Below the pieces are notes generated by a model. That model searched no databases and was not told where the DNA came from. It saw only the letters and a list, made by a program, of their open reading frames with translations. A DNA stretch of 64,000 nt from Candidatus Eiseniibacteriota bacterium (GTDB taxonomy: Bacteria > Eisenbacteria > RBG-16-71-46). How positions within the stretch are numbered: the first letter of the stretch is position 1; every line of letters begins with the position of its first letter. The stretch lies in assembly GCA_046327815.1 (NCBI GenBank), contig JAXLXR010000014.1, forward strand, positions 3,706-67,705, written 5' to 3'. The position numbers were made by a program, and so were the translations under genes. Positions 4,001-27,693 of this stretch are shown here, piece after piece.

Positions 4001-4935
4001 GCCTCGTGATCGGCGATCCCGCACTCGGCACGCCGGGCGCGCTCGGCGGCCGCGGCGCCCGCGAACGCGCGCTCGACCGCCTCCGCGGCGCGCACGTCGC
4101 GCACGAGCGCGAGCGCCGCGTCGCGATCCGCGGCCAGGCCCAGCACGAACGTGAACGTCGCGCTCCGGCCCGGTGGCAGGTGCACCTCGCGGCGCAGCGC
4201 CACGACCGGGTCCAGCACGTTGCCGCACGAGCCGCCGAGCGGCCCCGGCGTGCGCAGCGCCCGTGGCGCGGCGGGCGAGCCCTCCCGGCCCAGGAAGCGC
4301 ACGCGGTCGCTCTCGCACGACACGAAGCCGCGCTCGACCAGTGCGTGCACGAGCCACGGATGGCTCTCGTCGTTGCCGCGCGGCCGCCGGCGGGCGAGCA
4401 GCACCTCGTCGTCCGCCGCCCATTCGGTCTGCACGAACAGCTTCGAGAACGCCGGATGCGACGCGTCGGCCGCGGGGTGGTTGAGCACCACGTCGGCCCA
4501 CGACGTCACGTCGAGCACGCGTGGCGCGTCGCCCGTGTTGGTCAGTTCGAGCCGGCGGAGTTCACCGTCGGCGCCCTCGAGCACGCACACGTCGAGCCGC
4601 GCCTCGAGTCCGTCGCCGCGGCGCACGATCGTGACCCGGCCGGGCGCCGTCGCGAACTCGCGCGAGTCCGCCGAGCCGCCGGCGGGTTCTTCCCCGACCG
4701 AGAACCACGTGCGCGCCTCGACGTCGCGCACGAAGAAGAAGAGTCCCGTGCGGTCCTCGATCCGGTCGGCGTTCCAGCGCGTGAGCGCGCAACCCGGCGT
4801 GCGCGAGCAGCCTGTCCCCGCGCGTGTGAGCAGCACGGAGTAGCGGCCGTTCGACAGCCAACGTCCACCGGGGGTGGGCGAAGTCAGCCGTTCGGGTGTG
4901 GACAGTGCGGCCAGTGGTGTGCTCAGCGTGCTCAT
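1073..4935 (-). pseudogene. GH94 glycoside phosphorylase (1,2-beta-oligoglucan phosphorylase-like), reading frame broken near 3900-3970
   Basis: The N-terminal part reads in ORF 3481..4935 (MSTLSTPLAAL...RWNADRIEDRTGLFFFVRD...) up to ...AAAAAYGYSG. The C-terminal part continues in ORF 1073..4501 from ...QARQLPREGLFARHQL. GH94 hallmarks: LFGTGDWNDGMN (catalytic Asp region), ENGGQYTHG, and YYQSGGAFGFRDQLQD. No signal peptide. Confidence 0.75.
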
Positions 4936-4963: not shown

Positions 4964-6580
4964 TCACTTGAGGATCACGGCTCGCGACGTCCAGCGCGCG
5001 CCGGGGATTTCGAATCGGTAGAGGTAGATGCCGGGCGTGAGGTGCGACGCGTCCATGGTGATCGCGTGTTCACCCGCGGCGCGTTCGTCGTCGGCGAGAA
5101 GCGCGACTTCGCGGCCCTGCACGTCGTACATCGCCAGTCGCACGTGCGCGGGCGCGCTCAGGCGGAAGCGCACGGACGTCTGCCCGCGGAACGGGTTCGG
5201 GCCCGCCCCGAAGAAGGCGTCGGCGCGCGGCCGCGGCGGCCCGTCGGCGGCGTCGGTCGTCACCGGCAGGAAGCCCGCCAGGCTGAGGCCGCGCTGGATG
5301 TCGGCGTTCTTCATGAAGCGCGCCCAGATCATGTTGTTCCGGTAGTTCTCGATCATCATCACGATCGGGCCCTGGTCGATGCCCAGCACGTCGAGGCCGA
5401 GCCAGGGGTTCTTCACCGGGTTGAACGCGTCGGTGAAGCCGTACTTGGTCCACATCGGGTAGACCTTGTACGTGCGGTAGAGGTTGCGGATGCAGGGCCA
5501 CACCGAATCGGGCGCGAACGGGATCGAACTGATCGGCGCCGTCGGGGTGATCGTGCCGTTGTCGTAGCCGGCCGGCGCGCCGTGCGCCGCGTAGCCGTTC
5601 GGGTCGTCGCTCGCCGTGAATCCCCACAGGCTGTCGCTCTCACCCAGCTGGTAGGCCGGGTTCGTCGGGAAGTACTGCGCGAGGATGCCGTTGAAGCGCG
5701 CGTACGTGATCTGCGACAGCGTCGCACGACGGGAGTTCTCGAAGTACGTGATGCCCTTGGTGCGCATGTAGGCGTCGTTCACCTGCCGGAAGTCCACCCA
5801 GCAGTGCGAATACTGGTGCCCGAAGAGCGGCGCGAAGTTCACGTAGGGGCCCACGGCCGCGTACTGCGTCTGCCACGAGTAGCCGCTCGTCCACACGTTC
5901 CAGTCGGTCCCGGGAATCGGGTGACGCGGCGAGCCGATCGCGAGCAGGTACATGATCATGGCCTCGTTGTAGCCGATCCACCGACCGAAGCCGCTGAACC
6001 CCGAACTCGGGTTCCAGCCCATGTAGATCCCGCCGCTGGGATGGCGCACGAACGTCCAGTCGGCGCGCCACGTGATCGAATCCGCGAGCGCGCGGATCTG
6101 GTTCTCGCTCGCCTCGTTCTGCGAGAAGTACTCGCGCGCGTGCAGGATGCCGGCGAACAGCAGCGCGGTGTCGATCGTGCTGAGTTCGGAGTTCCAGTCC
6201 GCGCGGCGCAGGCCGGTGTTCATGTCGAGCCAGTGGTAGTAGAGGCCCTTGTAGCCGATCACGCCGGTGGTCCCGGCACCCTGCGGCCCGTTCCAGAAGG
6301 TGTTGAGCGTGGTGAGCACGCGCTGACGCGCCTGGGCGCGCGTGACCCAGCCGTGGTCCGACGCCACGCAGATCGCGCTGAGCCCGAATCCGGTCGAGGC
6401 GATGCTGCACACCGAGTTCGGCGTGCTGCGGTCCTTCACCAGGCCGTTCGCCGGGTTCGCCTCGTCCCAGAAGTAGCGGAAGCCCGTGTACTGGAGCGAG
6501 TCGAGGACCGCCTCGCGCGACTGGGCGGAGGCACTGGTCGCGAAGAGGAGCATGGCGAGGAGCAGGAGGACCCGTTTCAT
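4964..6580 (-). CDS. GH144-like endo-beta-1,2-glucanase (PF10091 putative glucoamylase fold) with T9SS C-terminal sorting domain
   Basis: Signal peptide MKRVLLLLAMLLFATSASAQ. Core FRYFWDEANPANGLVKDRS...IGYKGLYYHWLD...PLFGHQYSHCWVDFR...YFENSRRAT...GIDQGPIVMMIENY. The last ~80 aa (PNPFRGQTSVRFRL...GIYLYRFEI...AVILK) look like a Por_Secre_tail / FlgD-Ig CTD. Confidence 0.65.
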   Translation of the reverse strand: MKRVLLLLAMLLFATSASAQSREAVLDSLQYTGFRYFWDEANPANGLVKDRSTPNSVCSIASTGFGLSAICVASDHGWVTRAQARQRVLTTLNTFWNGPQGAGTTGVIGYKGLYYHWLDMNTGLRRADWNSELSTIDTALLFAGILHAREYFSQNEASENQIRALADSITWRADWTFVRHPSGGIYMGWNPSSGFSGFGRWIGYNEAMIMYLLAIGSPRHPIPGTDWNVWTSGYSWQTQYAAVGPYVNFAPLFGHQYSHCWVDFRQVNDAYMRTKGITYFENSRRATLSQITYARFNGILAQYFPTNPAYQLGESDSLWGFTASDDPNGYAAHGAPAGYDNGTITPTAPISSIPFAPDSVWPCIRNLYRTYKVYPMWTKYGFTDAFNPVKNPWLGLDVLGIDQGPIVMMIENYRNNMIWARFMKNADIQRGLSLAGFLPVTTDAADGPPRPRADAFFGAGPNPFRGQTSVRFRLSAPAHVRLAMYDVQGREVALLADDERAAGEHAITMDASHLTPGIYLYRFEIPGARWTSRAVILK

Positions 6581-6684: not shown

Positions 6685-7704
6685 CTAGAAGCCGATGCCC
6701 ACCGAAACGCGGTGGGCGCCGCCGAGGCGACCCTGGTCCGTCCAGCCGTAGTCGCACTGGTAGCGCATGGAATCGTAACGCCCGCGGATGCCGGCGCCGA
6801 GCGTGAGCCCGATTTCGGAGTCCTCGAGGAACAGCCCCTGCCAGCCCGCACGCACCGCGACCACCTCGCGCATGGCGTACTCCGCCCCGATGTTGACGCT
6901 CTCGGAGTTGTCGTTCGGATGGAACGCGTCGGCGACGAGCAGGAGCCGGCCGTCGTTCCCCACCTTGTAGGGCATGCCGACGCCCACCCGGAACAGGACC
7001 GGCACCGAGAACGCATCCGTGTAGCGCACGCCCGGCAGGCTGCTGTTGTCGCCGTTCTGTCCCGGAATGTTGTCGTACGTGAAGCGCAGGTCGCGACCGT
7101 CGAAGGCGGCGCGCGTGCCGAAGTTCGAGAGGCTCGAGCCGATGCGAAGCCCGTTCTCGGACACGCGGTACAGCGTGCCGATGCTCAGCGTCATCGCGCT
7201 CGCCGACGTGTGCCAGATCGTCTCCTGCAGCCAGTGCACCTGCATGCCCGCCGAGAACCGCGGCGAGATCTGGCGGCCGTAGCCGATCGCGAGATCGAGG
7301 TCCGAAACGTGGAACAGTTCGCCGGTGCCGTGCGGCTGCTCCACCGTGCGCACCTCGAGGTCACCCGAGTTGAGCGAAGTGACGCTCGCGAACGCCGTGC
7401 CCCACCCGCCCATCGGGAGTGCGGTCGCGACGTAGTCGTGGCGGATGTCGGCGATCCACGCGTTGTGCGCGAACACGGCCTGCGTCGAGCGCACGCCGCC
7501 GATCGCCGCGGGGTTGTACCACGCCGAGCCGAGCCCCTCGTACATCGAGACGCCGGCGTTGCCCATGGCGGCGATGCGCGCGTGGGGCTCGATCATGCTG
7601 AACGCGCCGAACGTGGTGCCCGTGTTCGTCTGGGCGAATCCCGTGAGCGGCACGGCGAGGAGGCACGCGCCGAGCACGGCACTCCGGATGAAGTTCGAGT
7701 TCAT
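6685..7704 (-). CDS. PorV/PorQ-family outer-membrane beta-barrel protein
   Basis: Only the last 339 codons of ORF 6685..10998 are coding. Start is ATG 7704..7702 (MNSNFIRSAVLGACLLAVPLTGFAQT). N-terminal motif FGAFSMIEPHARIAAMGNAGVS...AWYNPAAIGG. Alternating beta-strand pattern, ending in ...VSVGIGF. Confidence 0.6.
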   Translation of the reverse strand: MNSNFIRSAVLGACLLAVPLTGFAQTNTGTTFGAFSMIEPHARIAAMGNAGVSMYEGLGSAWYNPAAIGGVRSTQAVFAHNAWIADIRHDYVATALPMGGWGTAFASVTSLNSGDLEVRTVEQPHGTGELFHVSDLDLAIGYGRQISPRFSAGMQVHWLQETIWHTSASAMTLSIGTLYRVSENGLRIGSSLSNFGTRAAFDGRDLRFTYDNIPGQNGDNSSLPGVRYTDAFSVPVLFRVGVGMPYKVGNDGRLLLVADAFHPNDNSESVNIGAEYAMREVVAVRAGWQGLFLEDSEIGLTLGAGIRGRYDSMRYQCDYGWTDQGRLGGAHRVSVGIGF

Positions 7705-7718
7705 GGCGTCCTCCCTTC

Positions 7719-10700
7719 TCACTTGATGATGGCGAACTTGCCGACGTACTTGCCCACTCCCGGCGCGTCCACGTGGAACACGTAGAGCCCGGGCGCGACG
7801 TCGAGGTTGTCCTTGGTGCGCAGGTCCCACGGCACGTAGCCGTTCACGGAACCGTCCTGCCGCAGCGTGCGCACGAGGTCGCCGTGCACGGTGTAGATGC
7901 GCACGACGGCGTCCTGCGGGATCGCACGGAACTCCATGCGCCGGTCGCCGCGCCCCGAGACGTTGAACCGCTGCGGCTCGAAGCTCGCGGCGGCGACGTA
8001 GGGATTCGGCACCACGTAGGGCTTCTGCGACCACGCGGCCTGCGCGCCGGCCGCGCTCACGCCCTGCGCGCCGGTGACGAACGTGAACGTGTCGGCCACG
8101 CCGAGCGTCGTGGCGAGCCGCAGCGTCCACACGTCGCCCAGGTTCGGCCGGGCCAGCGTGTCGGGTGCCACCACGGCGGCGGGATCGAGCGTGATGCGCC
8201 ACGTCGGCTGGTGCGCGGCGGGCGCCCACGGCGCGTTCGTCTCCACCTCGATGTAGTCCTGCGCCGCGTTGATCGTGCCGTCGCGGCCCACGTCGCGGAA
8301 CCGGAACTTCATGCGCCGGTCGCCCGACGGCGTGTGCGCGATCACCACGAACTTCGCGGGATTCGCGCGATCGCCGGTCGAGATGATCACGCCCGTGTCG
8401 CGCACCACGTTGTCGAACACGATCGAGATGTCGTCCGGGTAGCCGGTGCGCCGCAGGTTCGGCGACAGCGTCGGCGCGAAGCTGTTGTTCACGAGGAAGC
8501 GCGCGTTCGTGGTGGACCCGGCGCTCCAGCCGGTGCTGTCCGTGCGCACCATGACCGGCGCCGCGGCCTTGCGGACGTACGGCAGCAGTCCCGCACCGAT
8601 CGGACCGACACCCGCCGAGTCGAAGTCGGCGCCGCTCTTGAACCAGGTGAAGTGATCGGTCGAGTCGCGCAGCTCGTACTTCATGGCCGCGATCGAGTCC
8701 GGCGAATCGGTCGTGAACGTGAGCGCCATGAGGTGGCCGTCCTGCACGATGTCCGAGTTCACCACCTCGATGCCCACGCCACCGCGTCCGCGTCCGGTCG
8801 CGTGCGCCGCCGGCGTCACGGTCGCCGCCGTCCAGCCGCCGACGCGCGGGTTCGCGCGCACGGCGACCACGTTCGACGGCAGGATCAGTCCGCCGCGCGC
8901 GGTGCGCGACACCGGGATCGAGTTCTCGGACGGGTAGAACGACGTCGAGTCCGCGCCGGTGTCGAAGCCGCGGTCGTAGGCGCAGACCGCGTAGTAGTAC
9001 TGCTGGCCGTTCACGGCGGTCGTGTCCGTCCAGGTGTGGCGGATGCCGTTGTTCTCGCCGAGCCAGTACTGCACGCCGCTCACCGCCATGCGCGAGTAGC
9101 CGGCGTAGGAATCGTCGAGATCCATCTGGTGGATCGGCTGGCCGTTGCCGACGGGCTGCGTGCCCTGGCCGTTGTACACCTTCTGCACGTCGCGGAAGTC
9201 GGGATCGGTCGCGCGGTAGATGCGGTAGCCCTCGAAGTCGAAGTCGTGCGTGACCGGATCGATCGAACGCTCGGCGACGTCGTCCCACGACAGCCGTACG
9301 TAGCCGTCTCCCGATTCGGCGGTGACCGTCGGGCGCGTCGGCGGCACCGCGAACTGGTAGTTCGCGTTGTAGATCTGCTGCACCGTCTGCACGGACGCGC
9401 GCAGCTCGCTGAGCGTGCTGCCGTACGCGAGCGCCAGGCTGAAGCGCTCGCGCTGCCCGGCCTTGAGCGTGAACGGGCCGGACGCGAACAGGAACCCGAT
9501 GTTGAAGTTCGCGACGATCGTCGAGTCGAAGCGCGCCTGCGTCACGGGGTTCGTGAACGTGTCGTAGAGGATCAACGGCCAGTTCTTGCCGTCGAAGTCG
9601 CAGAACAGCACGTTGTGCAGGTACTCGGGATGGTCGGTGGTGTTCGTGATGAGGTTGTACTTGAAGCCGGTGAGCCCGATCTGGTCGGACTCGCTCACGT
9701 CGGTCTTGTCGAAGTTCGGCTCGCCGAGCGTCGGGATGCCGTCGAGCTCGCCGGTGTCGAACGTCTCGGGCACGCCGTCGGCGCCGACGTCGTCGAGCTC
9801 GGCGTTCCAGTCCATGTCCTCGTCGCCCGTGTACCAGCGGCCGAGCCGGTAGGCCGCGTGCTTCTCGAGCCGGCCGTAGGCGCGGTACCACTTGGTCGTG
9901 TCGTAGTGCGACTCGACCCACGCTCGGATCGCGTCCTGCCCCACGACCAGCGCGCCCACGCCGCCGTCGCGCAGTTCGTTGAGCATGCCGTCGTTGTCGT
10001 TGTCGAGCGCGTCGAGCGCGTTGCCCGGCGTCTCGAGGTAGGCGTAGCCCATGTAGCCCGTGCGCGCGCACGCGCCGTCGAGGCTCTTGCCGTGGCCGTT
10101 CATGTCCCACGTGTACGTGAGGTTCAGGCCGAACGACTTGTCGAAGAACGCGTTGTCGTCGTCGGATTCGGCCACGCCGTCGCAGGAGATCGCCGAGCCG
10201 CCCACGCCGGAATCCATGTAGATCCCGAAGATGATGTTGTCGTCGTAGTCGGTCGTGCCTTCGTTCGCGATGTCGTAGTGCCAGAAGATGACGTTGCCGG
10301 CCTGCGGATTGGCCCACTGGAAGCCGCGCGTCTCGACGCGCAGCCCGAGCCCGCGCCGCGTGAGGTCGCGCGAGTCCGGATTGAAGCGCCACGTGCTGTA
10401 GAAGTCGTCGTCCATCACCGTGAACGACTCCTGGTCGGCGGCGGGACGCTTGCCGAAGTAGCCGTTCCACGCGCCCGGCCAGCCCGGATCGTCGCCGTCG
10501 GTCTGCTTGTCCGGCCACGCGTCGGGCCATGTGCGGGGATCGTGGCTGATCGCGGGCGAGCGCGCCTTGTTGATCGTCGGGTCGGGCTGGAAGAACCCGG
10601 GCCGGGGTTCGAACCGCATGGTGCGGTTGAGCGGGTCGTTGCACTGCCGTTCCCGGTAGCCCGTCTCCATGATGTAGGAGTCGGTACCGTCGGTCTGGCG

Positions 10701-11048
10701 GATCTTCGCGAGCACGAACGGCGTGATGCCGTCCGAGTAGTTCATGCCCGAGCCCTTCGGCGCTTCGACCGAATGGAACACCGACAGGTCCACGTTGATC
10801 GGGTCCGCGGGGTAGCCGCCGACCATGCCCCAGTTGTGGAACATGGTGCGGATGTTGTTCGCGTCGTGCAGTCCCTGGCGCTCGGCGTCGATGCGTCCGC
10901 GCAGTTCCTGCGGGATCACCGGCTCGAGCAGCCCGTCCGCGAATGCCGCGACCGCGCCGCATGCGATCATCATCGCGGCGGCCAGCACGGCGGTACACGT
11001 CCTGCGCAGAGTCATGTCACCGTCCTCGTGACGAAGGTTCGCGTTCAT
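7719..11048 (-). CDS. 1109-aa surface protein of unknown function with Ca-binding-type Asp repeats, an FN3-like module and a T9SS C-terminal sorting domain
   Basis: ORF 7719..11048. Its start overlaps the TBDR stop (TGATG at 11046-11050); an alternative start is 11015 (MTLRRTCTAVLAAAMMIACGAVAAFA signal peptide). Motifs: DNDNDGMLNE and DDVGADGVPE repeats, GYVRLSWDD...GYRIYRA (FN3-like), and a C-terminal VVPNPYV...GLYVFHVDA...GKFAIIK. Confidence 0.7.
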   Translation of the reverse strand: MNANLRHEDGDMTLRRTCTAVLAAAMMIACGAVAAFADGLLEPVIPQELRGRIDAERQGLHDANNIRTMFHNWGMVGGYPADPINVDLSVFHSVEAPKGSGMNYSDGITPFVLAKIRQTDGTDSYIMETGYRERQCNDPLNRTMRFEPRPGFFQPDPTINKARSPAISHDPRTWPDAWPDKQTDGDDPGWPGAWNGYFGKRPAADQESFTVMDDDFYSTWRFNPDSRDLTRRGLGLRVETRGFQWANPQAGNVIFWHYDIANEGTTDYDDNIIFGIYMDSGVGGSAISCDGVAESDDDNAFFDKSFGLNLTYTWDMNGHGKSLDGACARTGYMGYAYLETPGNALDALDNDNDGMLNELRDGGVGALVVGQDAIRAWVESHYDTTKWYRAYGRLEKHAAYRLGRWYTGDEDMDWNAELDDVGADGVPETFDTGELDGIPTLGEPNFDKTDVSESDQIGLTGFKYNLITNTTDHPEYLHNVLFCDFDGKNWPLILYDTFTNPVTQARFDSTIVANFNIGFLFASGPFTLKAGQRERFSLALAYGSTLSELRASVQTVQQIYNANYQFAVPPTRPTVTAESGDGYVRLSWDDVAERSIDPVTHDFDFEGYRIYRATDPDFRDVQKVYNGQGTQPVGNGQPIHQMDLDDSYAGYSRMAVSGVQYWLGENNGIRHTWTDTTAVNGQQYYYAVCAYDRGFDTGADSTSFYPSENSIPVSRTARGGLILPSNVVAVRANPRVGGWTAATVTPAAHATGRGRGGVGIEVVNSDIVQDGHLMALTFTTDSPDSIAAMKYELRDSTDHFTWFKSGADFDSAGVGPIGAGLLPYVRKAAAPVMVRTDSTGWSAGSTTNARFLVNNSFAPTLSPNLRRTGYPDDISIVFDNVVRDTGVIISTGDRANPAKFVVIAHTPSGDRRMKFRFRDVGRDGTINAAQDYIEVETNAPWAPAAHQPTWRITLDPAAVVAPDTLARPNLGDVWTLRLATTLGVADTFTFVTGAQGVSAAGAQAAWSQKPYVVPNPYVAAASFEPQRFNVSGRGDRRMEFRAIPQDAVVRIYTVHGDLVRTLRQDGSVNGYVPWDLRTKDNLDVAPGLYVFHVDAPGVGKYVGKFAIIK

Positions 11049-13723
11049 CAGTTCGACACGTTCAGCGAGAGTCCGAGTTCGATTCGGCGGGGCCCGTAGT
11101 AGCGCGTCGGGTCGGCGAGCGTGGCGGCGTCGCGGACCGGGAAGCGCGAGTAGTACGGGCTGCCCGAGTTGGCGAAGACGAAGCCGTTGAAGGCGCGGGT
11201 GTCCCCCACGTTGAAGACGCGGGCGAACACCGACGAGCCGAGGCCGAACAGCTTCACTTCACGCGAAGCGCGCAGGTCCATCATGATGCCGGCCGGCTTG
11301 CGTCCCGAGTTCGCCTCGAGTCCGCCGCCGAACCCCGTCTCGATCTCCGGCGTGTACGGCTGGCCGCTCGCGACGCGGATCGCGGTGCCGACGTTCCAGG
11401 CCTGCGCGCGGGCGAGCGTGAGCGTGAGGTTGAGCGCGTGGCGCTGGTCCCAGGCGAACGGCACCGAACGCGGGCGCGGATCTTCCCCCGCGGCGGCGCG
11501 CGACGCCGTCTCGCGCGGATCGCTCGAGTTGCCCTGGGCGGACTGCCACGTGTAGTCCAGGGTCGTGCTGAGCAGGTTCTTCGGACCCTGCGCGCGCTGG
11601 TTCACCGAGAAGGTGAAGCCGATCACGTTGCCGAAGTCCACGTTCGTCAGCCGCGCGTACTGCGCGCCGTTGTAGGTCTCGACGAACTCGACGCCGAGCA
11701 GGTCGCGGATGTCCTTGAAGAACGCGGTCACGTCCACGCCCAGCCACTCGTTCAGCGCGTGCTTGTAGCCGAACTGGTACTGCACCGTGCGCTCGGGCTT
11801 GATGTCCGGGTTGCCCATCGTGGGCGCCGATTCGCCCGCCTGCAGGTCCTTGAGCTCGTCGTAGTCGGCGTGCTCGAAGATCTGGCCGAGGCCGGGGAAC
11901 TGGTAGAAGTGCCCGTAGGCGAAGAACAGCGCCGCGTTCGCGTTGATCGGGTACGACACGCCGATGCGCGGCGCGAGCGAGAACTTCGCGCTGGTGCGCA
12001 CGTCGTGCGACTGCGGCACGCCGCTGATCGAGTTCGCGGGGTTCGCGAGGTCGCTCGGCAGGTACGCGCGCGCGTCGAAGTACTCGAGCCGGGCGCCCGC
12101 GCGCAGCGTGAGGTCGTTCCACTCGAGTTCCTCCTGCGCGAACGCGGCACCGAGGAACGGGCGGTATTCCTGCACGCCGGGGAACTCCGGCGAGTAGTTC
12201 ACCACGCGCATGAGCGTCTGCGCACCGCCCTGCGAGGTGTCGGCGCCGTAGCGCAGGTAGCCGGGCACGCCGAACGACACGTGGGGCGCCTGGAACTCGG
12301 CGCCCAGCTTGATCTGGCTCTCCTTGGTGCGCTGGTTCACGAACGAGCCCTTCAGCACGGCGCCGTTCGTCTTCTGGCGGAAGCGCGTGAAGTCGGCGCC
12401 CTGCACGATCGCGCCGTTCTCGTACTGCCCGCTGCTCGTGGTCGGTCCGTAGGCGTCGTAGCGCGGATCGAAGACGTCCTCGAACAGGAAGTCGCGATAG
12501 TTGAAGTAGTTCTGCCGCGCGCTCAGCGTGTAGTACGTGGTCGTCGAGAGCGTGTGCGTGAGGTCCATGCCCTGCACGAGCGAGATCGTGCGCTGCTCGC
12601 TCGCGCCGTCGGGATTCAGGCGGTACGCCCACTTCAGGTTCTGGCGGTCCGTCACGTTCAGGATGCCCTGCCAGCTCAGCTCGACGTTGGGGATCGAACG
12701 GTTCGTCAGCTTCGTGATGCCCGACCATTCGTGCGACCAGCCGAGCGGCACCGTTTCGCCGTCACCGGTCGGGTGGAACGCCAGGTTCGCGACGTCCGAG
12801 CGATCCGTCGGGCGGAACCGGCGCTCGCCCCACACCCAGTCCTCGTTGCGGTAGTGACGCCCGCTCACGAGGTACGTGGTCTTCGGCAGCTTCGTCGGGC
12901 CGTGCAGGGTGACCTGCCAGTTCTGCTGCGAGAACGGACGGTCCTTGTATTCGAGGATGCGGCCGGTGTTGCCGGGGTACACGGGACCGCCGCTGAAGAG
13001 CTCGGCGTCCCAGTGGAACTTGTCGGTGCCGCGCTTGAGGACGGCGTTCACGACGCCGCTCATCGCCTGGCCGTACTCGGCGTCGAACGTGCCGGAGATG
13101 ACCTGCACCTCCTCGAGCAGCGAACGGTCGAGCTTGAGCGTGGACGAGTTGTCGTAGGCGTTGTTCACGCTCACGCCGTCCACCTGGTACTGCACTTCAC
13201 CGGTGCGACCGCCGCGGAAGTGGCCGTCCACGACGCCGGCCTGCAGGTTCACGATGTCCTGCAGCTCCTGCACGGGCAGCGCCTGCAGCTGTTCGCGGTT
13301 CACGGTGGCGATGTTCGACGTGCGGTGCACCTCGACCACCGGGCGGCGCGCGCTCACGATGGTCTCCTGCATCTCGACCGCCGACTCCTTCATGGCGATG
13401 TCGAGCCGGGTGGTGTTGTCCGCGGTCACCTCGACGTTCTGGACGGCCACGGGGCCGTAGCCGATCAGCCCCGCCTTCACCTCGTACTTGCCGGCGGGCA
13501 CGTTGAGGATCATGAAGCGGCCCTGCTCGTCGCTGATGCCTCCGAGCGGAAGTCCCGCGATCCGGACGGTGACTCCGGCGAGCGGCTCCTTGCGCTGGCC
13601 CGAGACCTTGCCGGTGAGCTTCCCCGTGGTGCCCGCGAACGCCGCACCCACGCACGCCACGGCGAGCAGCACCGCCGTGACGACGAGGCGCGCGCACGCG
13701 CGAACGAACCCTCCGCGATCCAT
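11048..13723 (-). CDS. TonB-dependent receptor with N-terminal carboxypeptidase-regulatory-like domain
   Basis: ORF 891 aa. Signal peptide, then GKLTGKVSG...GVTVRIAG...GRFMILNVPAGKYEVKA (CarbopepD_reg), the plug region ETIVSARRP...LQALPVQELQDIVNLQAGV, a long beta-barrel, and a C-terminal ...RRIELGLSLNVSN. Confidence 0.85.
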   Translation of the reverse strand: MDRGGFVRACARLVVTAVLLAVACVGAAFAGTTGKLTGKVSGQRKEPLAGVTVRIAGLPLGGISDEQGRFMILNVPAGKYEVKAGLIGYGPVAVQNVEVTADNTTRLDIAMKESAVEMQETIVSARRPVVEVHRTSNIATVNREQLQALPVQELQDIVNLQAGVVDGHFRGGRTGEVQYQVDGVSVNNAYDNSSTLKLDRSLLEEVQVISGTFDAEYGQAMSGVVNAVLKRGTDKFHWDAELFSGGPVYPGNTGRILEYKDRPFSQQNWQVTLHGPTKLPKTTYLVSGRHYRNEDWVWGERRFRPTDRSDVANLAFHPTGDGETVPLGWSHEWSGITKLTNRSIPNVELSWQGILNVTDRQNLKWAYRLNPDGASEQRTISLVQGMDLTHTLSTTTYYTLSARQNYFNYRDFLFEDVFDPRYDAYGPTTSSGQYENGAIVQGADFTRFRQKTNGAVLKGSFVNQRTKESQIKLGAEFQAPHVSFGVPGYLRYGADTSQGGAQTLMRVVNYSPEFPGVQEYRPFLGAAFAQEELEWNDLTLRAGARLEYFDARAYLPSDLANPANSISGVPQSHDVRTSAKFSLAPRIGVSYPINANAALFFAYGHFYQFPGLGQIFEHADYDELKDLQAGESAPTMGNPDIKPERTVQYQFGYKHALNEWLGVDVTAFFKDIRDLLGVEFVETYNGAQYARLTNVDFGNVIGFTFSVNQRAQGPKNLLSTTLDYTWQSAQGNSSDPRETASRAAAGEDPRPRSVPFAWDQRHALNLTLTLARAQAWNVGTAIRVASGQPYTPEIETGFGGGLEANSGRKPAGIMMDLRASREVKLFGLGSSVFARVFNVGDTRAFNGFVFANSGSPYYSRFPVRDAATLADPTRYYGPRRIELGLSLNVSN

Positions 13724-13762
13724 GCCCGATTCCCTCTCCTGAGGCCGCGGCCGGCGGGCCGT

Positions 13763-13790
13763 CCGGGGCGGGCCCGCGGGCCCGCCCCGG
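13763..13790. other. 28-bp perfect GC palindrome (CCGGGGCGGGCCCG/CGGGCCCGCCCCGG) between the CBM9-like gene and the TBDR gene
   Basis: Read directly from the sequence. The second half is the exact reverse complement of the first. It lies inside the 92-nt spacer of a co-directional gene pair, upstream of the GGAGAGGGAA ribosome-binding site of the TBDR. Confidence 0.5.
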
Positions 13791-13815
13791 CGGCGTTCGC
13801 CGGAACCGAACGTGA

Positions 13816-15735
13816 CTACCGAAGCACCATCATCTTTCCGGACAGCGTCGCGCGCTTGGCGCCGGCGGAGTTCCGGATGTTCACGCGATACAGGTACACA
13901 CCCGCGCCCGGGGCGAACTGCGGCATGCGGATCTCGCGCTGGCCGGCGCCCTGCAGGCCGACGGCGCGCGACGCGACGACGCGGCCCTGGAGGTCGAACA
14001 CCTCGAGGTCCACGAGCGACGCTTCCGGCAGCGTGTAGCGCACGATCGCGCCCTCGCGCACCGGGTTCGGATAGCTTCCGAGCAGCGCGTAGGCGGAGGG
14101 CGAGCCGTCGCCGTCACCCACGCCCGCAAGCGACTGGGCCGGGTTCATGAACGCGACGCAGGCGCCGTCGTTGTTCTCCCATTCGCGGAAGAACCAGCGG
14201 CGGGTGCCGTAGCTGTCGGTGACCGGCGAGAACGAATCGCCGTCCATGAGGTCGCACGACCAGTACAGCGCGTGGTCGCCGAGACCCGCGGGATAGCCGA
14301 ACTGGCGCAGGTTGATCGCCATCTCGGCGGTCCAGCCCGCGTCGGTGTCCACGCCGAGCGTGTCCACGGTCGTGCCGGGCTTGAGCGCGATCTTGCAGCG
14401 CACCACGCCGAGCGTGTCGCGCAGGTACGTGAGTTCGTCGGCCGTCTTGGTGGCACCGCCGGCACCCACGTAGAACGTCATCTTGTGGCCTTTCATGTTG
14501 CGATCGTCACCGCGCGTCGCGCGGTCGTTGATCGCCACCACGAAGCCGTCCCAACGGTCGCTGAGCGTGTGCGTCTGCACGACCTGGTCGTTCACGTCGA
14601 AGCCCAGGAACAACGTGTCGCCCTTGAAGAAGTACTTCACGAACGCGTCGCCCGGATCGGCGATGAACGCCGTACCGCCGTTGCCGTTCACGGGTGCCTG
14701 GTACTGGCCCGAACGGTAAGGACCCACGCCGGGATACGCCGCGAGCTGCGCGTTGTCGTCGTAGGTGAGCCGGATGCTCGGAGCCTGCGACCAGACCGAC
14801 TCGCTCAGCGAGCCGTCGATGGCCGGCGTCGCATAGGAGCCCGCCTCCGGGATCGTCATGTCGGCGGCGAAGACGGGCGTCGGGCCCGACGTCACGTTGA
14901 CCGACGGACGGCCGAGCACGTGCACGTTGTGGAACCACGCGGCGTTGCCCCACGGCCCCTGCACCCACGTGCGGTTGACCGCGAAGCGGAAGAAGTTCGC
15001 GAGCGGCCAGAAGTTGTCGATGTCGTACAGCGAGCAGTTCCACTCGATGATGTCGCCGTCGGCGTCCGTCACGTCGTAGCCGTTCAGGCCGAGGTCGAAG
15101 CGCATCTCGACCGTGTAGCCCTGGTCCATGAGCGTGTCCGAGTTCACCGTGCCGTTCACGACGTAGCGCGCGTCCCACGCTTGAAGCTGCTGCGTGGTCG
15201 GGGGCACCGAGTTCGGCGGCCACGTGCGCCAGTAGCCGACCATGCTCATCGGCTTGTTGATCGCCTTGGGATTCAGGTCGCCGCTCTCCGGCGGCCACCA
15301 CCACGACATGAAGTGCTCGCGCGGCGGCGACGGATGGCCGGGATCGTTGTGGCCCTTGAGCGACATGAGCAGGCCGTCGAAGCGGTTGAACTGGTCGCTG
15401 CCGCCGATCGAGCTGTCACGCACGGTGACCGCGAGCCAGAGCTGGTTGTCCACGGTGAGGAAGCGGAACACCGCGCGGTTCGGATCCGACGAGATGAAGC
15501 CGCCCTCGTCCTTCCAACCGGAGCCCGGGATGGGCCCGTCCTGCCGGGTCGTGATGATGAGCGATTCGGCCTGCGCCCACTGCGGCTCGTTCAGCTGGCC
15601 GTCGAGGGTGAGCGCGGCGCCGTTGGTCGAGCGGGCCCAGATGTAGTCGTAGCGCTGGAACTGTGCCCACGCCGGTAGCGAGGCGCACAGCAACGCGCCC
15701 GTCATCAGGGCGGTCACCAATCCTGCCTTCTTCAT
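13816..15735 (-). CDS. tandem CBM9/DOMON-like carbohydrate-binding surface protein with T9SS C-terminal sorting domain
   Basis: ORF 639 aa. Signal peptide MKKAGLVTALMTGALLCASLPAWAQ. Two LDGxLxExxW modules (LTLDGQLNEPQWAQAE and PAIDGSLSESVWSQAP). C-terminal SYPNPVREGAIVRYTL...GVYLYRVNI...GKMMVLR. Confidence 0.65.
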   Translation of the reverse strand: MKKAGLVTALMTGALLCASLPAWAQFQRYDYIWARSTNGAALTLDGQLNEPQWAQAESLIITTRQDGPIPGSGWKDEGGFISSDPNRAVFRFLTVDNQLWLAVTVRDSSIGGSDQFNRFDGLLMSLKGHNDPGHPSPPREHFMSWWWPPESGDLNPKAINKPMSMVGYWRTWPPNSVPPTTQQLQAWDARYVVNGTVNSDTLMDQGYTVEMRFDLGLNGYDVTDADGDIIEWNCSLYDIDNFWPLANFFRFAVNRTWVQGPWGNAAWFHNVHVLGRPSVNVTSGPTPVFAADMTIPEAGSYATPAIDGSLSESVWSQAPSIRLTYDDNAQLAAYPGVGPYRSGQYQAPVNGNGGTAFIADPGDAFVKYFFKGDTLFLGFDVNDQVVQTHTLSDRWDGFVVAINDRATRGDDRNMKGHKMTFYVGAGGATKTADELTYLRDTLGVVRCKIALKPGTTVDTLGVDTDAGWTAEMAINLRQFGYPAGLGDHALYWSCDLMDGDSFSPVTDSYGTRRWFFREWENNDGACVAFMNPAQSLAGVGDGDGSPSAYALLGSYPNPVREGAIVRYTLPEASLVDLEVFDLQGRVVASRAVGLQGAGQREIRMPQFAPGAGVYLYRVNIRNSAGAKRATLSGKMMVLR

Positions 15736-15880: not shown

Positions 15881-16984
15881 TCAGGCCGTCGCGCTGTCCC
15901 CCCGTGACGAAAGCCGCTCGTCGCGATGGTGCGCGTGACCGGCGGGCGAACGGCGGCGGGCTCGCACCGCGGGCCCTTCGGAAACCGAGGGCGCGCCGCA
16001 CGACTGCCGCACGACCAGGGACGTTTCGAGTTCCTCGCGCTGGCCGTCGGCCGGACGCCGTGCGCGGGCGAACGGCAGCAGCTGGCGCAGCGCGCGCTCG
16101 CCGAGTTCGCACGCGTTCACGCGCACCGTGGTGAGCGTCGGCGTGAGGTAGCGCGCGATGGCGATGTCGTCGAAGCCGACGATCGCCATGTCCTGCGGCA
16201 CGCGCACGCCTTCGTCGCGCAGCGCGCTCAGCAGGCCGATCGCCATGTAGTCGTTGGCGCAGAACACGGCGCTCGGACGCTGGCTCGCGGCGAGGAAATC
16301 CTGCGCCGCGCGGAAGCCGGCGGACTCGCTGAAGTCGCCGGCCACCTCGAGCGCGGGGTTCCACTCGAGCCCGGCGTCGCGCAGCGATTCACGATAGCCG
16401 CGCGCGCGCTCGTCGGCGTCGAGGTTGCCCTGCGGGCCGCGCACCATGCCGATCCGGCGATGGCCGAGCTGCGCGAGGTGCTTGACCGCGGCGTACGCAC
16501 CGTCGTAGTTCGTGATCGCGATGCTGCCGCACTCGGGCGCCGAGGCGCCGGGGTTCAGCAGCACGACCGGGAAGCGCGACGCGAACTCCTCGATCGCCAT
16601 GTGCGCTTCGGCGTCCGGCACCATCACGACCAGCCCGTCGATGCGCCCGCGCAAGGCGCGGATCGCGGAGACGATCGTCTCGGTGCTGTCGTGGAAGCTG
16701 GAGACGAGCACCTGGTACTTCTCGGCACGCGCCGCGAGGTCGATGCCGCGGATCACTTCGGAGAAGAACTCGCCGTACAGGTCGGGCAGCAGCACGCCGA
16801 TCGCATGCGTGCGGTGCGTGATCAGGCTGCGCGCCGCGCTGTTCGGCCAGTAGTCGAGACGAGCCGCGATGCCGCGCACGTGCGTCGCGGTCGCTTCGCT
16901 CACGAGCGCGGTCTGGTTGAAGACGCGCGACACCGTCGCGATGGAGACACCTGCTTCGCGGGCCACGTCACGGATGGTCGCCAC
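15881..16984 (-). CDS. LacI-family transcriptional regulator (copy 1)
   Basis: ORF 367 aa. HTH MATIRDVAREAGVSIATVSRVFN followed by a periplasmic-binding-protein-like sugar-binding core. Confidence 0.9.
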   Translation of the reverse strand: MATIRDVAREAGVSIATVSRVFNQTALVSEATATHVRGIAARLDYWPNSAARSLITHRTHAIGVLLPDLYGEFFSEVIRGIDLAARAEKYQVLVSSFHDSTETIVSAIRALRGRIDGLVVMVPDAEAHMAIEEFASRFPVVLLNPGASAPECGSIAITNYDGAYAAVKHLAQLGHRRIGMVRGPQGNLDADERARGYRESLRDAGLEWNPALEVAGDFSESAGFRAAQDFLAASQRPSAVFCANDYMAIGLLSALRDEGVRVPQDMAIVGFDDIAIARYLTPTLTTVRVNACELGERALRQLLPFARARRPADGQREELETSLVVRQSCGAPSVSEGPAVRARRRSPAGHAHHRDERLSSRGDSATA

Positions 16985-17074
16985 TGCCGGCTCCGATGCG
17001 GTTGTGGATGGAACTGGGTCCTGGCCTGAGAGCGCGGTGGAGGCACGATCGAGGGGCCCCGAAGCCGCGAGCGA

Positions 17075-17089
17075 TGAAAACGATTACAT
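17075..17089. promoter_or_regulatory. LacI-family operator candidate (TGAAAACGATTACAT) in the divergent lacI-1 / GH1 intergenic region
   Basis: Identical to 945-959. Lies 91 nt upstream of the lacI-1 ATG and 219 nt upstream of the GH1 ATG. Confidence 0.55.
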
Positions 17090-17307
17090 CGCGATTGGGA
17101 CTTTGTAAAGCGGGTCTTTCGGAGCAGCCTCCCCCGCGAGGGACCACTCGTACCCCGGCCGGCGGGGCCACACCTAAGGGTCGCACTCACTTATCGTTGG
17201 ATGATTTCGCCATGACCGGCCCCGGGCCGGCGTTGGACGAGCCGTCCGGCGCTCCCTATCCTGCGCCGACTTTCTCCGAACCCGCTGGCCATGCGAGGAC
17301 ACGACTC

Positions 17308-18654
17308 ATGATGAAAACGTTTCCGGCGAACTTCCTCTGGGGCGCCGCGACGAGCGCCTACCAGGTCGAGGGCTCCCCGCTCGCCGACGGCGCGGGCGCA
17401 AGCATCTGGCACCGCTTCGCGCACGAGAGCGGCCGCATCCGTGCCGGCGACACCGGCGACGTGGCGTGCGATCACTACCGGCGCTGGGAGTCCGACGTCG
17501 AGCTCATGAAGCAGCTCCAGCTGAACGCGTACCGCTTCTCGCTGTCGTGGAGCCGCATCCTGCCCGAGGGCACGGGGCGCGTGAACGAGAAGGGCCTCGA
17601 CTTCTATCGCCGACTCGTCGACCGCCTGCTCGCGCGCGGCATCACGCCGAACGTGACGCTGTACCACTGGGACCTGCCGGCCGCGCTCGAGGATCGCGGC
17701 GGCTGGACGAATCGCGACGTCGCCGAGTGGTTCGCGGACTACGCGCAGGTCGTGTTCGAGGCCTTCGGTGACCGCGTGCCGATGTGGGCGACGCTCAACG
17801 AACCGTGGGTCGTGGTGGACGGCGGTCACCTGCACGGCGCGCACGCGCCCGGCCGAAAGGGCGTCACGAACGCCGCGGCCGCCGCGCATCACCTGCTGCT
17901 CGCGCACGGCGCCGCGGTGGAACGCTACCGCGCGCTCGGACTGCCGCACGCGATCGGCGTGGTCGTGAACCTCGAGCCCAAGGACCCGGCGTCCGATTCG
18001 CCCGAAGACCTCGCGGCCACGGCGCGGGCGCACACCTACTTCAACGAGCAGTACTGCGACGCGCTGTTCCTCGGGCGCTACCCCGAAGGCCTGCGCGAGA
18101 TCTACGGCGAGGGCTGGCGCGAGCCGTCGGCCGAGGACATGAAACGCATCTCGGTGCCGGTGGATTTCCTCGGCGTGAACTACTACACGCGTGCGCTCAC
18201 GCGGCACGCCCCGGACGAGCCGCCGGTGTGCGACGCGCGCGTGCTGCCCGCGGGCGCCGTCCCCATGACCACGGGCTGGGAGTTCTTTCCCGAAGGGCTG
18301 ACGCGCACGCTGTGCTGGGTGAAGGAGCGATACGGCGACGTGCCGCTGTACGTGACCGAGAACGGCGGCGCGTACGCCGACCCCGCGCCCGACGCGCAGG
18401 GCCGCGTGCACGACCCGCTGCGCGTGACGTGCTACCGCGAAAACCTCAAGGCCTGCCTCACGGCGATCGAGCGTGGCGTGGACCTGCGCGGGTACTTCGC
18501 GTGGTCGCTCATGGACAACCTCGAGTGGGCGGCGGGCTTCTCGCAGCGCTTCGGGCTCGTGCACGTGGACTTCGCGACGCAGGTGCGCACGATCAAGTCG
18601 AGCGGCGAGTTCTACCGCGACGTGATCCGCACGAACGGCGCGGCGCTGGACTGA
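17308..18654 (+). CDS. GH1 beta-glucosidase
   Basis: Within ORF 16996..18654. Start at the ATGATG at 17308 (MMKTFPANFLWGAATSAYQVEG) with GAGGA upstream. Acid/base motif TLNEPW and nucleophile motif VTENGGAY. No signal peptide. Confidence 0.9.
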   Translation: MMKTFPANFLWGAATSAYQVEGSPLADGAGASIWHRFAHESGRIRAGDTGDVACDHYRRWESDVELMKQLQLNAYRFSLSWSRILPEGTGRVNEKGLDFYRRLVDRLLARGITPNVTLYHWDLPAALEDRGGWTNRDVAEWFADYAQVVFEAFGDRVPMWATLNEPWVVVDGGHLHGAHAPGRKGVTNAAAAAHHLLLAHGAAVERYRALGLPHAIGVVVNLEPKDPASDSPEDLAATARAHTYFNEQYCDALFLGRYPEGLREIYGEGWREPSAEDMKRISVPVDFLGVNYYTRALTRHAPDEPPVCDARVLPAGAVPMTTGWEFFPEGLTRTLCWVKERYGDVPLYVTENGGAYADPAPDAQGRVHDPLRVTCYRENLKACLTAIERGVDLRGYFAWSLMDNLEWAAGFSQRFGLVHVDFATQVRTIKSSGEFYRDVIRTNGAALD

Positions 18655-21945: not shown

Positions 21946-22767
21946 TCAACCCTTCACGGAACCCATGAGCACGCCCTGGATGTACGAGCGCTGCATCACG
22001 AGGAACACGACGAGCACGGGCAGCACGGTCAGCACCGAGCCCGCCATCATGAGCTCGGTGTCCTGCACGTGCTCGCCCACGAGGTTCGCGAGCGCGACGG
22101 GCAGCGTGTACTTCGCGTCGTCGCTCAGCATGATGAGCGGCCACATGAAGTCGTTCCACGCCGACAGGAAGCTGAACGTGGCCATGGTGACGAGGATCGG
22201 CTTGAGCACCGGCATCACGATCGTCCAGTAGATGCGCCACTCGCTCGCGCCGTCGATCCGCGCCGCGTCCAGCAGGTCGTCGGGAATGCTCTGCGCGAAC
22301 TGGCGGATCATGAAGATGCCGAACACGCCGGCCAGCCCGGGCACCATCACGCCCCACGGCGTATTCACGAGCCCGAGCCCCTTGACCATGAGGAACAGCG
22401 GCATCATGCCGACCTGCGCCGGGATCACCATGGCCGCCACCAGCACACGGAACACGGCCTCACGCCCGCGGAAGCGCAGCTTCGCGAACGCGTAGCCCGC
22501 CATCGAGTTCACCACGAGCGAGCACAGCGTCACGCTCACGGTCACGAACAGCGAGTTCGCGAACGTGCGCGCGAGGTTCAACCGCGTGAACAGGTCCACG
22601 TAGTGTTCGAACGTCGGGTGCGACGGCAGCAGCGGCGGCGGGAACGAACTCGCCTGCCCCGTGGGCATGAACGACGCGGACACCATCCAGAGCAGCGGCG
22701 TGAGGGTGACGAGCGCGCCCAGCACGAGCAGCGCGTGCACGAGGGCGGACGGCAGCAGCTTCTTCAC
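21946..22767 (-). CDS. carbohydrate ABC transporter permease (MalG-like)
   Basis: C-terminal 273 codons of ORF 21946..23622. GTG start at 22767 overlaps the upstream stop (GTGA). EAA loop IDGASEWRIYWTIVMPVLKP. Confidence 0.85.
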   Translation of the reverse strand: MKKLLPSALVHALLVLGALVTLTPLLWMVSASFMPTGQASSFPPPLLPSHPTFEHYVDLFTRLNLARTFANSLFVTVSVTLCSLVVNSMAGYAFAKLRFRGREAVFRVLVAAMVIPAQVGMMPLFLMVKGLGLVNTPWGVMVPGLAGVFGIFMIRQFAQSIPDDLLDAARIDGASEWRIYWTIVMPVLKPILVTMATFSFLSAWNDFMWPLIMLSDDAKYTLPVALANLVGEHVQDTELMMAGSVLTVLPVLVVFLVMQRSYIQGVLMGSVKG

Positions 22768-26442: not shown

Positions 26443-26465
26443 GTCGGGGCTCCGAAGGTGGGGCT

Positions 26466-27527: not shown

Positions 27528-27575
27528 GACGGCTGCCCTTTCCGTGGGTGGGAACCGGCCTCTGCGAAGAACGAG

Positions 27576-27590: not shown

Positions 27591-27693
27591 GCGCGGGCCC
27601 CACGGGTGTCAAGAACTGGTGCGGCGACGAACGCCCGCCGGGTAGCGACCGGCGTCGCTCGCCGCCGAGTCCGCGCGTGCTACGTTCCGCCGC

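Follow-up and report, generated by a model that had tools for sequence, protein, structure and literature searches.

A conserved trio of TonB-dependent receptor, large C-terminal-domain protein and PorV/PorQ-family barrel in a putative beta-1,2-glucan locus of an Eisenbacteria genome

The capture of glycans at the outer membrane is understood almost wholly through the SusC/SusD pair, and the automated detection of polysaccharide utilisation loci (PULs) relies on that same pair. The locus that we describe here contains neither protein. It lies in a 64,000-nucleotide stretch of DNA with a G+C content of ~70% from a Candidatus Eiseniibacteriota bacterium (contig JAXLXR010000014.1, positions 3,706 to 67,705 of the forward strand); this whole stretch is called the window below, and all coordinates are given in its own numbering. 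The proteins nearest to those of the window in the databases bear the name Candidatus Eisenbacteria. Five closely packed minus-strand genes span positions 4964-15735 of the window. The three in the middle, which we call the trio, encode a TonB-dependent receptor (TBDR, 891 aa; 11048..13723, minus strand), a secreted multidomain protein of 1109 aa that belongs to an unnamed family and is called BIG in this text (7719..11048, minus strand), and a PorV/PorQ-family beta-barrel of the outer membrane (339 aa), called PorVf, which is the putative cognate anchor of BIG (6685..7704, minus strand). The two outer genes encode a 639-aa protein (p639) upstream of the receptor and a glycoside hydrolase (GH) of family 144 downstream of the barrel. 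We give a probability of about one half to the reading that the trio and its surroundings are the outer-membrane half of a beta-1,2-glucan locus, in which BIG, anchored by PorVf, would act as a capture platform beside the receptor.

In gene organization, the closest described systems are the SusC/SusD PULs and the utilisomes. As in these, the glycan locus is centred on a TonB-dependent importer with a partner gene directly downstream of the importer gene. As in SusC/SusD PULs, it encodes surface glycan-binding proteins and surface glycoside hydrolases together with periplasmic and cytoplasmic enzymes and a regulator, and the window receptor shares with SusC and RagA an N-terminal CarboxypepD_reg domain, of the kind also called an N-terminal extension (NTE). 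The differences lie in the proteins that occupy these positions. The trio has a barrel that is not SusC, no SusD, and an obligatory third gene for a PorV/PorQ-family barrel; the partner protein is a multidomain protein of 1100 aa that has a signal peptide and is not a lipoprotein; and, whereas the surface proteins of Bacteroides are lipoproteins, those of the trio loci carry type IX secretion system (T9SS) C-terminal domains (CTDs). Bacteroides also has TonB-dependent transporters (TBDTs) other than SusC, next to which conserved lipoprotein 'lids' other than SusD are encoded whose predicted place is over the outer side of the barrel (Price et al., bioRxiv 10.1101/2023.03.17.533168). These lipoproteins are small and serve small substrates, whereas the candidate partner in the trio is a T9SS-type protein of 1100 aa with its own barrel, and the trio is found in polysaccharide loci and in other phyla.

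Described systems that resemble the other half of the trio, the barrel and the CTD protein, come from the T9SS itself. In the attachment complex of Porphyromonas gingivalis, the CTDs of PorU and PorZ stay in place, with PorV holding PorU at the surface and PorQ holding PorZ, and PorV also binds many CTD cargos as a shuttle (PMC5562754). It has been proposed in a review that cognate PorV-like barrels shield CTDs from cleavage, with PorZ/PorQ and type-B cargo with PorP/SprF-like barrels as examples, a PorP/SprF-like barrel being the proposed anchor of the uncleaved type-B CTD (PMC10202324). BIG and PorVf are like PorU-PorV and PorZ-PorQ in pairing a PorV/PorQ-family barrel with a protein that has a PorU/PorZ-like CTD. 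Apart from this tail, BIG is unrelated to PorU, which is a sortase, and to PorZ, which has two propellers, and BIG and PorVf are encoded beside a TBDR in catabolic loci and in many paralogous versions instead of as a single housekeeping copy. SprB and SprF of Flavobacterium johnsoniae, which combine a type-B CTD with a PorP/SprF-like barrel, are comparable in that a large surface protein is encoded beside a dedicated barrel gene; the trio differs in its barrel family (PorV/PorQ), in its CTD (of the type-A/PorU/PorZ kind) and in its context, which is nutrient uptake and not gliding motility. A further case of a FadL/PorV-like barrel holding a surface protein is BamG, a FadL-like barrel by which BamH, a surface protein, is held in the BAM complex (the machinery that assembles beta-barrels) of the Bacteroidota (PMC12578637).

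The locus also has a relative in which the enzymes have been studied. According to the main text of a paper on Ignavibacterium album, the endo-beta-1,2-glucanase (SGL) cluster IALB_1177-1187 contains two GH144 genes, a GH94 gene, a sophoro-oligosaccharide-binding protein of an ATP-binding cassette (ABC) transporter and a TonB-dependent transporter, and it has GH3 and GH35 where the window has GH1 (PMC8861115). A metagenome-assembled genome (MAG) of I. album in our collection carries a locus (L018) with genes for a LacI regulator, GH94, a p639-like protein, the TBDR, BIG (55% identical to that of the window), PorVf and GH144 in the same order as in the window, and this comparison identifies the SGL cluster as an orthologous locus. 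The main text of the I. album paper raises a role of the transporter only as a possibility, and the genes for BIG and the PorV-like protein go unmentioned there (PMC8861115). Our literature search, which had little reach into subscription journals, returned no published description of the TBDR-BIG-PorVf trio. We regard the trio as a combination of a TBDR-centred glycan locus with the barrel-CTD anchoring of the T9SS.

The evidence that carries our reading begins with gene order. The first-pass annotation of the window, which was made from its letters alone, had described four consecutive minus-strand genes for p639, the receptor, BIG and PorVf, with the start of BIG overlapping the receptor stop and the GH144 gene following directly, and had suggested that synteny of the receptor, BIG and barrel genes be looked for in relatives. 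The gene arrangement is as described: the BIG ATG and the receptor TGA share one base (TGATG), and the BIG stop and the PorVf start are separated by 14 nt that include a GGGAGG Shine-Dalgarno sequence. The synteny is also found. We scanned GTDB species genomes with a diverse BIG alignment to obtain 80 loci, on which the window proteins were placed by tblastn; the taxon labels of the MAGs are those deposited. The loci belong to Eisenbacteria, Krumholzibacteriia, Ignavibacteria (including I. album), Calditrichia, Kryptoniota, Rhodothermales, Marinimicrobia, Stahlbacteria and some bins labelled Bacteroidota. Wherever the contig reaches, the order TBDR-BIG-PorVf is kept, every exception being a contig end. 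It was scored at 71 TBDR-BIG and 73 BIG-PorVf junctions in at least eight lineages of the Fibrobacterota-Chlorobiota-Bacteroidota (FCB) group, and PorVf lies directly downstream of BIG in 73/73 testable loci. Measured from a stop codon to the point where the alignment of the following gene begins, the median distance is 71 nt for TBDR-BIG and 59 nt for BIG-PorVf; after allowing for unaligned N-termini, the true intergenic gaps are ~0-20 nt. Within the 64-kb window itself, no paralogs of the trio were found elsewhere.

Among the 80 loci we defined an orthologous group as those with a BIG at least 49% identical to that of the window, plus two more distant loci at 37-39%. A p639 homolog, a LacI regulator, GH144 and GH94 are usually present in this group too, with the p639 homolog upstream of the receptor in 47 orthologous loci and the LacI gene kept upstream of p639 in 37. 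The median identities over the orthologous loci are 56% for BIG, 51% for the receptor, 49% for GH144, 47% for PorVf, 39% for p639 and 36% for GH94. BIG is the best-conserved protein of these loci, which suggests that it makes several constrained contacts. Outside the core p639-TBDR-BIG-PorVf the gene order varies, and GH94 may lie upstream of it, downstream of it or on the opposite strand. The outer-membrane genes (BIG, receptor and PorVf) are better conserved across phyla than the GH94 of the same locus, and GH144 falls in the range of the outer-membrane genes; a core that moves or is constrained as a unit would fit this pattern.

The trio extends well beyond the orthologous group. In most loci in which BIG is 32-37% identical to that of the window, the trio is intact and the neighbouring genes are different: a CTD protein with carbohydrate-binding modules (CBMs) of the CBM9 or CBM4_9 type is encoded upstream, and GH16-malectin-CTD, GH9-CTD, GH2-CTD or GH3 proteins are encoded downstream. 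A census of 73 flanking open reading frames (ORFs) in 14 of these paralogous loci gave Por_Secre_tail 21 times, GH16 8, GH3 6, CBM9 6, GH9 5, GH2 5, sodium:solute symporters 5, GH144 4 and malectin 4. As a rule, the trio follows a gene for a CBM-CTD protein and lies among genes for CTD-bearing enzymes. Because it stays intact in the company of other enzyme sets, the trio is a general outer-membrane module of glycan loci in these phyla and not one that is specific to beta-1,2-glucan. In view of the contents of both the orthologous and the paralogous loci, we dropped the explanation that BIG is conserved as a housekeeping gene unrelated to glycans.

The first member of the trio, the receptor, was correctly placed by the first-pass annotation among the TonB-dependent receptors with a CarboxypepD_reg domain. 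It matches the Pfam models for all three domain classes, namely CarboxypepD_reg (PF13715/PF13620), Plug (PF07715) and TonB_dep_Rec_b-barrel (PF00593), and it has a barrel of the 22-strand type. We rejected its assignment as a SusC: with the SusC/RagA model TIGR04056 it scores 53.4 bits (cutoff 368), on residues 35-158 only (model positions 2-118), and in profile searches of the PDB the barrel is closest to generic TBDTs (PhuR), the likeness to SusC/RagA being confined to the N-terminus. The early claim that a SusD-like gene is missing also stands, since every coding stretch of positions 1073-18654 is assigned to another family, which leaves no gene in this interval that fits SusD. The alignment of the receptor homolog is split into two pieces that overlap, ~7244-8512 and ~8496-9893, in two genomes of the Ignavibacteriales (loci L030, 7244-9893, and L033, 7246-9893), which suggests a frameshift or a sequencing error.

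The identity of the barrel rests on several comparisons that agree with each other. PorVf matches the 'PorV/PorQ family' model NF033709 with 155.1 bits (cutoff 90) over residues 35-339. It stays below the cutoffs of the two equivalog models, with 48.8 bits against 250 for PorV (NF033710) and 77.9 against 220 for PorQ (NF033711), both of which match its N-terminal half only, and judged by these scores PorVf is a subfamily separate from the PorV and PorQ equivalogs. All 34/34 PorVf homologs from the loci match NF033709 (best E=1.3e-75). When the profile of the PorVf family was searched against the PDB, it matched PorV (6h3i_F, E=1.9e-21), and FadL chains were absent from the matches at E<=10. 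The first-pass annotation had named a FadL/OmpP1-type transporter as the outcome that would count against a PorV/PorQ-like barrel, and we rejected the FadL-type assignment on the PorV-only PDB match and the 34/34 family matches. Ten of the 34 homologs also match the NCBIfam BamG family weakly (best E=1e-9).

The CTD of BIG is what ties the protein to this barrel in our reading. It comprises residues ~1008-1109 (7722..8027, minus strand) and is predicted by AlphaFold2 (AF2) to be a seven-strand beta-sandwich, with a predicted local distance difference test (pLDDT) score of 84-90 over most of the domain. Positions 692-757 of the PorZ model NF052228 match BIG residues 1032-1109 (E=1.7e-4), and when a profile of the last 105 residues, built from 23 members, was searched against the whole PDB, the two best matches were the CTDs of PorU (6za2, E=7e-4) and PorZ (5m11, E=3e-3). 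Among 27 diverse members of the BIG family, the NCBIfam models for PorZ, PorU and the generic type-A CTD (TIGR04183) match 13/27, 5/27 and 4/27, respectively. In the same 27 members the mean pairwise identity is 50% for the CTD, 48% for the Fn3-like domain, 39% for the N-terminal domain and 24% for residues 720-1000. By these comparisons the BIG CTD is a distinct, highly conserved subtype and the tails of p639 and GH144 are ordinary type-A CTDs. Within BIG the CTD is conserved more strongly than any other domain, which fits a conserved protein partner and not a disposable signal. Taken together, the invariant adjacency of the two genes, the distinct CTD subtype and its position as the most conserved domain make a one-to-one anchoring pair of BIG and PorVf the most economical explanation. 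The best reading of these comparisons is that PorVf would be BIG's own anchor beside the receptor and would not be shared by all three CTD proteins of the locus.

BIG as a whole matches no Pfam family, and a sequence search against the PDB gives a marginal match only, to the Fn3-like protein 3mpc. A word-indexed search returned more than 2445 homologs, of which the best 120 run over the full length without exception, with identities of 60% or more; where the sources name these 120, the name is always 'hypothetical protein'. In an exhaustive search of representatives at 50% identity, the family comprises 3597 clusters at E<=1e-3, a number that falls to 483 when E<=1e-30 is required, and many of the representatives are 1000-1600 aa long and 33-45% identical to BIG. 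A full-length AF2 model built from 44 close homologs is good only for the C-terminal half, where residues ~570-1000 reach a pLDDT of 80-95; in the N-terminal half the pLDDT is <60. The C-terminal half of this model consists of Fn3-like and beta-sandwich domains followed by the terminal seven-strand sandwich, and its Foldseek matches are generic immunoglobulin (Ig)/Fn3 arrays only, PorZ being found at a template modelling (TM) score of 0.10-0.14. From the AF2 model and the PDB profile search we delimit an Fn3-like domain (residues ~570-715) and a variable beta-sandwich region (~720-1000), which together occupy 8049..9341 (minus strand). The latter is the most variable part of the protein and on that ground is a candidate for its specificity region. 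Residues 40-575 were remodelled with a more diverse alignment, which gave a pLDDT of 85.3 and a predicted TM-score (pTM) of 0.86. The resulting N-terminal domain (residues ~40-565; 9354..10931, minus strand) is a predicted beta-supersandwich, and Foldseek matches it to the supersandwich domains of dextran dextrinase, GH94, GH116, GH15 and GH149 with a probability of 1.0 at a TM-score of ~0.33; with a TM-score of only ~0.33, what is matched is a single sub-domain. This N-domain model lacks an (alpha/alpha)6 catalytic domain. The Asp-rich motifs DNDxDGxxDE and DDVGxDG of the N-terminal domain are invariant in the BIG alignments and look like calcium-binding loops.

We also considered whether BIG is a PorZ homolog and rejected this assignment, since the PorZ model NF052228 gives 20.2 bits against a cutoff of 260, on the tail only, and the N-domain is a predicted supersandwich instead of a propeller. 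The family includes, to judge from its domain matches, architectural variants. Reg_prop repeats ('two-component regulator propeller'), which are of the kind that PorZ has, are found in 3/27 of the diverse members, the longer ones (1300-1600 aa) being the obvious candidates, and weak matches to CHU_C, a type-B CTD model, are found in 3/27. The strongest PorZ-model scores in the family may come from the three members that bear Reg_prop repeats.

The other two CTD proteins flank the trio. The first-pass annotation had called p639 (13816..15735, minus strand) a tandem CBM9-like protein with a T9SS CTD, and we agree. It has a signal peptide, two CBM9-like modules of ~255 aa and a type-A CTD at residues ~555-639, and it is a putative surface glycan-binding protein. 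The tandem duplication of the ~255-aa module is detected by hhalign (probability 99.8%, E=3.6e-30), and the CTD matches TIGR04183 with 35.8 bits (cutoff 23); PF18962 gives 22.6 bits, under its cutoff of 27. The Pfam CBM9 model itself (PF06452) does not match p639 even at E<=10. The CBM9 likeness comes from the p639-family profile, whose top PDB match is the CBM9 structure 1i82 (E=2e-4), with only part of the second module covered, and from the positional counterparts of p639 in 6 paralogous loci, which match PF06452 CBM9_1 directly; pairwise BLASTP of p639 with these counterparts aligns mostly the CTD, and profile methods are needed for the modules. The GH144 protein (4964..6580, minus strand), of the endo-beta-1,2-glucanase family, scores 220 bits with PF10091, and its CTD is of type A by both PF18962 (28.7 bits, cutoff 27) and TIGR04183 (26.2 bits, cutoff 23); we take it as the surface or secreted enzyme of the locus.

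The substrate is deduced from the GH families that are present in the wider locus. Downstream of the trio lies a GH94 phosphorylase gene (1073..4501, minus strand), whose product has a supersandwich and a catalytic domain (PF17167, 403.6 bits; PF06165, 226.1 bits) and, from its family and context, is probably a 1,2-beta-oligoglucan phosphorylase. Upstream of p639 are a LacI-family regulator (15881..16984, minus strand; PF00356 and PF13377) and a divergently transcribed GH1 beta-glucosidase (16996..18654, plus strand; PF00232, 526 bits). An ABC sugar importer follows at 21946..24904 (minus strand), its genes delimited by a scan of reading frame and of G+C content at third codon positions (GC3), so that the starts are approximate: the solute-binding protein (PF01547/PF13416) is at ~23660-24904 and the two permeases, both matching PF00528, are at ~22764-23600 and ~21946-22500. 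A second GH144 (24952..26544, minus strand; PF10091, 241.5 bits over residues 264-507 of 530) is 40% identical to the first, is not matched by the CTD models, and is likely a periplasmic endo-beta-1,2-glucanase. It is followed by a second LacI-family regulator (26466..27608, minus strand; PF00356 and PF13377). The set largely agrees with that of the I. album SGL cluster. From these families we infer a complete beta-1,2-glucan utilisation system that comprises two GH144 enzymes, GH94, GH1, the ABC transporter and two LacI regulators.

The mechanism that we propose for the outer-membrane half of this system would start with the export of p639, GH144-CTD and BIG by the T9SS. The first two would be processed and attached or released as normal type-A cargo, and at the cell surface would bind the glucan and cleave it. 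The PorU/PorZ-type CTD of BIG would probably remain uncleaved and be captured by PorVf, in the way PorU is by PorV and PorZ by PorQ. This anchoring would set the supersandwich and Ig-like domains of BIG next to or over the receptor, where the supersandwich and the variable Ig-like region could capture the oligosaccharides that GH144-CTD frees from glucan held by p639. BIG would thus be an oligosaccharide-capturing platform or lid, a functional analogue of SusD and of the utilisome surface proteins, that feeds sophoro-oligosaccharides to the receptor for TonB-driven import. The periplasmic GH144, the ABC importer, GH94 and GH1 would then complete the catabolism under LacI control. We suggest that the trio may functionally replace SusD and the surface glycan-binding proteins (SGBPs).

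Several observations weigh against this proposal. The first-pass annotation had counted three CTD proteins, and the count holds for p639 and GH144, which pass the type-A models; the BIG tail has no match to TIGR04183 or PF18962 at E<=0.01 and is recognised only through the CTDs of PorZ and PorU. These matches are themselves weak (E=7e-4 for PorU and 3e-3 for PorZ), and across the BIG family the generic type-A model TIGR04183 is matched by only 4/27 members. The Foldseek matches of the predicted N-domain cover about one third of the domain at a high root-mean-square deviation, so that they speak to the fold class and not to function. BIG is more conserved than the transporter, which is unusual for a surface glycan binder, and it could have an enzymatic or mechanical role. 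No T9SS core genes (SprA/Sov, PorK/L/M/N, PorU, PorV) were seen within the 64-kb window. In the census of paralogous loci, SusD families are absent from the 25 commonest of 61 families, and a rare SusD-like neighbour is possible. Finally, the export of BIG by the T9SS, the retention of its CTD, its binding to PorVf, its contact with the receptor and its binding of glycan are what we infer from the gene content, family memberships, synteny, spacing, CTD subtype and conservation, and predicted folds described above; the contact between BIG and the receptor is the weakest step of the mechanism.

Four other explanations were compared with this one. The first-pass annotation had favoured PorVf as a locus-specific shuttle and anchor for p639, BIG and GH144-CTD alike, gathered in one complex at the surface that could stand in for SusD and the surface glycan-binding proteins. 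Three CTD proteins are indeed encoded around the barrel, PorV is known as a shuttle for many CTD cargos (PMC5562754), and in most paralogous loci, too, CBM and GH proteins that bear CTDs are encoded on either side of the trio. Against this, only BIG invariably adjoins the barrel, and the CBM-CTD and GH-CTD genes vary in number and kind between loci, which, together with the ordinary tails of p639 and GH144, argues against one barrel for all three. The BIG CTD is a separate, conserved subtype, and one would expect cargo with ordinary type-A tails to rely on the housekeeping PorV. We have not retained the shared anchor and regard it as unlikely, although it is the best supported of the four. Slightly less likely still is that BIG and PorVf are an accessory for secretion or attachment like PorZ-PorQ, which would serve the CTD cargo of the locus, for example by presenting the anchor glycolipid, and would have no part in uptake. 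The resemblance of the BIG CTD to that of PorZ is as expected from this, as are the higher score of PorVf with the PorQ model than with the PorV model (77.9 vs 48.8 bits) and the Reg_prop propeller repeats in 3/27 family members. It fits less well that outside its CTD BIG has no similarity to PorZ (20 bits vs 260) and that its N-domain is a predicted supersandwich instead of a propeller, and an accessory role would explain neither the invariant, translationally coupled linkage to a TBDR nor the diversification into hundreds of paralog groups that are tied to different GH sets.

The three proteins of the trio might also be co-transcribed and act independently, with PorVf as a FadL-like channel for a small or hydrophobic product, BIG as a free adhesin or an unrecognised enzyme, and the receptor working alone as in the proteobacterial loci for carbohydrate utilization containing a TBDT (CUT loci). 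The PorV family is structurally FadL-like, and a few PorVf homologs carry precomputed PF03349 matches or are given the name 'long-subunit fatty acid transport protein' by one source. To our knowledge, glycan receptors outside the Bacteroidota work without lids, as they do in CUT loci, and BIG is unusually conserved for a glycan binder. On the other side, a search of the PDB with the PorVf profile retrieves PorV without any FadL chain, 34/34 homologs pass the PorV/PorQ family model, the conserved PorU/PorZ-type CTD would be left unexplained, and a strict adjacency at near-zero spacing across phyla and paralog groups is typical of the subunits of one complex. We consider independent action improbable, at roughly one chance in ten or a little worse than the accessory role. 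By far the least probable is a receptor that acts in export and helps BIG or another protein across the outer membrane. There is a precedent in Myxococcus, where Oar, a TonB-dependent transporter, is needed for the secretion of the protease PopC (PMC6434023), and the window receptor has a CarboxypepD_reg N-terminal domain as Oar does. This domain is shared by the importers SusC and RagA, however, the T9SS-type tail of BIG already indicates a separate export route, and the genes around the receptor make up a complete catabolic import pathway of periplasmic GH144, ABC importer, and cytoplasmic GH94 and GH1.

The remainder of the window holds genes of other kinds. Between the GH1 gene and the ABC importer, at 18593-21900 (minus strand), a homolog of a 547-aa protein with an F5/8-type-C domain reads in frame and without a stop into a homolog of a 463-aa hypothetical protein, and the latter shifts its reading frame at ~19630-19638. 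A related locus (L001) has two separate intact genes, so that this segment of the window would be a fused and frameshifted gene or pseudogene, or an assembly error. Positions 30264-43000 contain ordinary housekeeping and miscellaneous genes, among them genes for a haemolysin-III family protein, a GTP-dependent phosphoenolpyruvate carboxykinase, an HD phosphohydrolase, a protein with a urate-oxidase N-terminal domain, a DEAD-box helicase, a histidine phosphatase, NeuB and an RraA-like protein. A chemotaxis cluster at 44097-54535 (minus strand) encodes a methyl-accepting chemotaxis protein (MCP), a CheA-CheW fusion, a CheY-like receiver with a CheX domain and a CheR-CheD fusion, and appears to be unrelated to the glycan locus.

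The distribution of the trio leads us to a broader proposal, which we hold tentatively and with less assurance than the reading of this one locus: that FCB phyla other than the Bacteroidia (Eisenbacteria, Ignavibacteria, Calditrichia, Kryptoniota, Rhodothermales and others) build their polysaccharide importers on the T9SS instead of on surface lipoproteins, from a TBDR, a dedicated PorQ-like barrel and a BIG lid or capture arm that plugs into the barrel by its uncleaved CTD, with CBM proteins and enzymes anchored by CTDs around them. If true, this would be a second, independent solution to the problem that SusC and SusD solve, with hundreds of paralog groups and previously unrecognised, and PorV-family barrels would gain a role outside secretion, as permanent, paralog-specific anchors in nutrient uptake. 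It would give a testable role to a family of ~1100-aa proteins with ~3600 clusters at 50% identity whose members are annotated as 'hypothetical protein' in the sources that we have seen. The presence of an orthologous cluster in the cultivable I. album, whose enzymes have already been studied, places the question within experimental reach. If the trio is a working unit, it would define a SusD-independent type of locus that PUL tools miss, in large and mostly uncultured phyla of soils and sediments that take part in carbon turnover.

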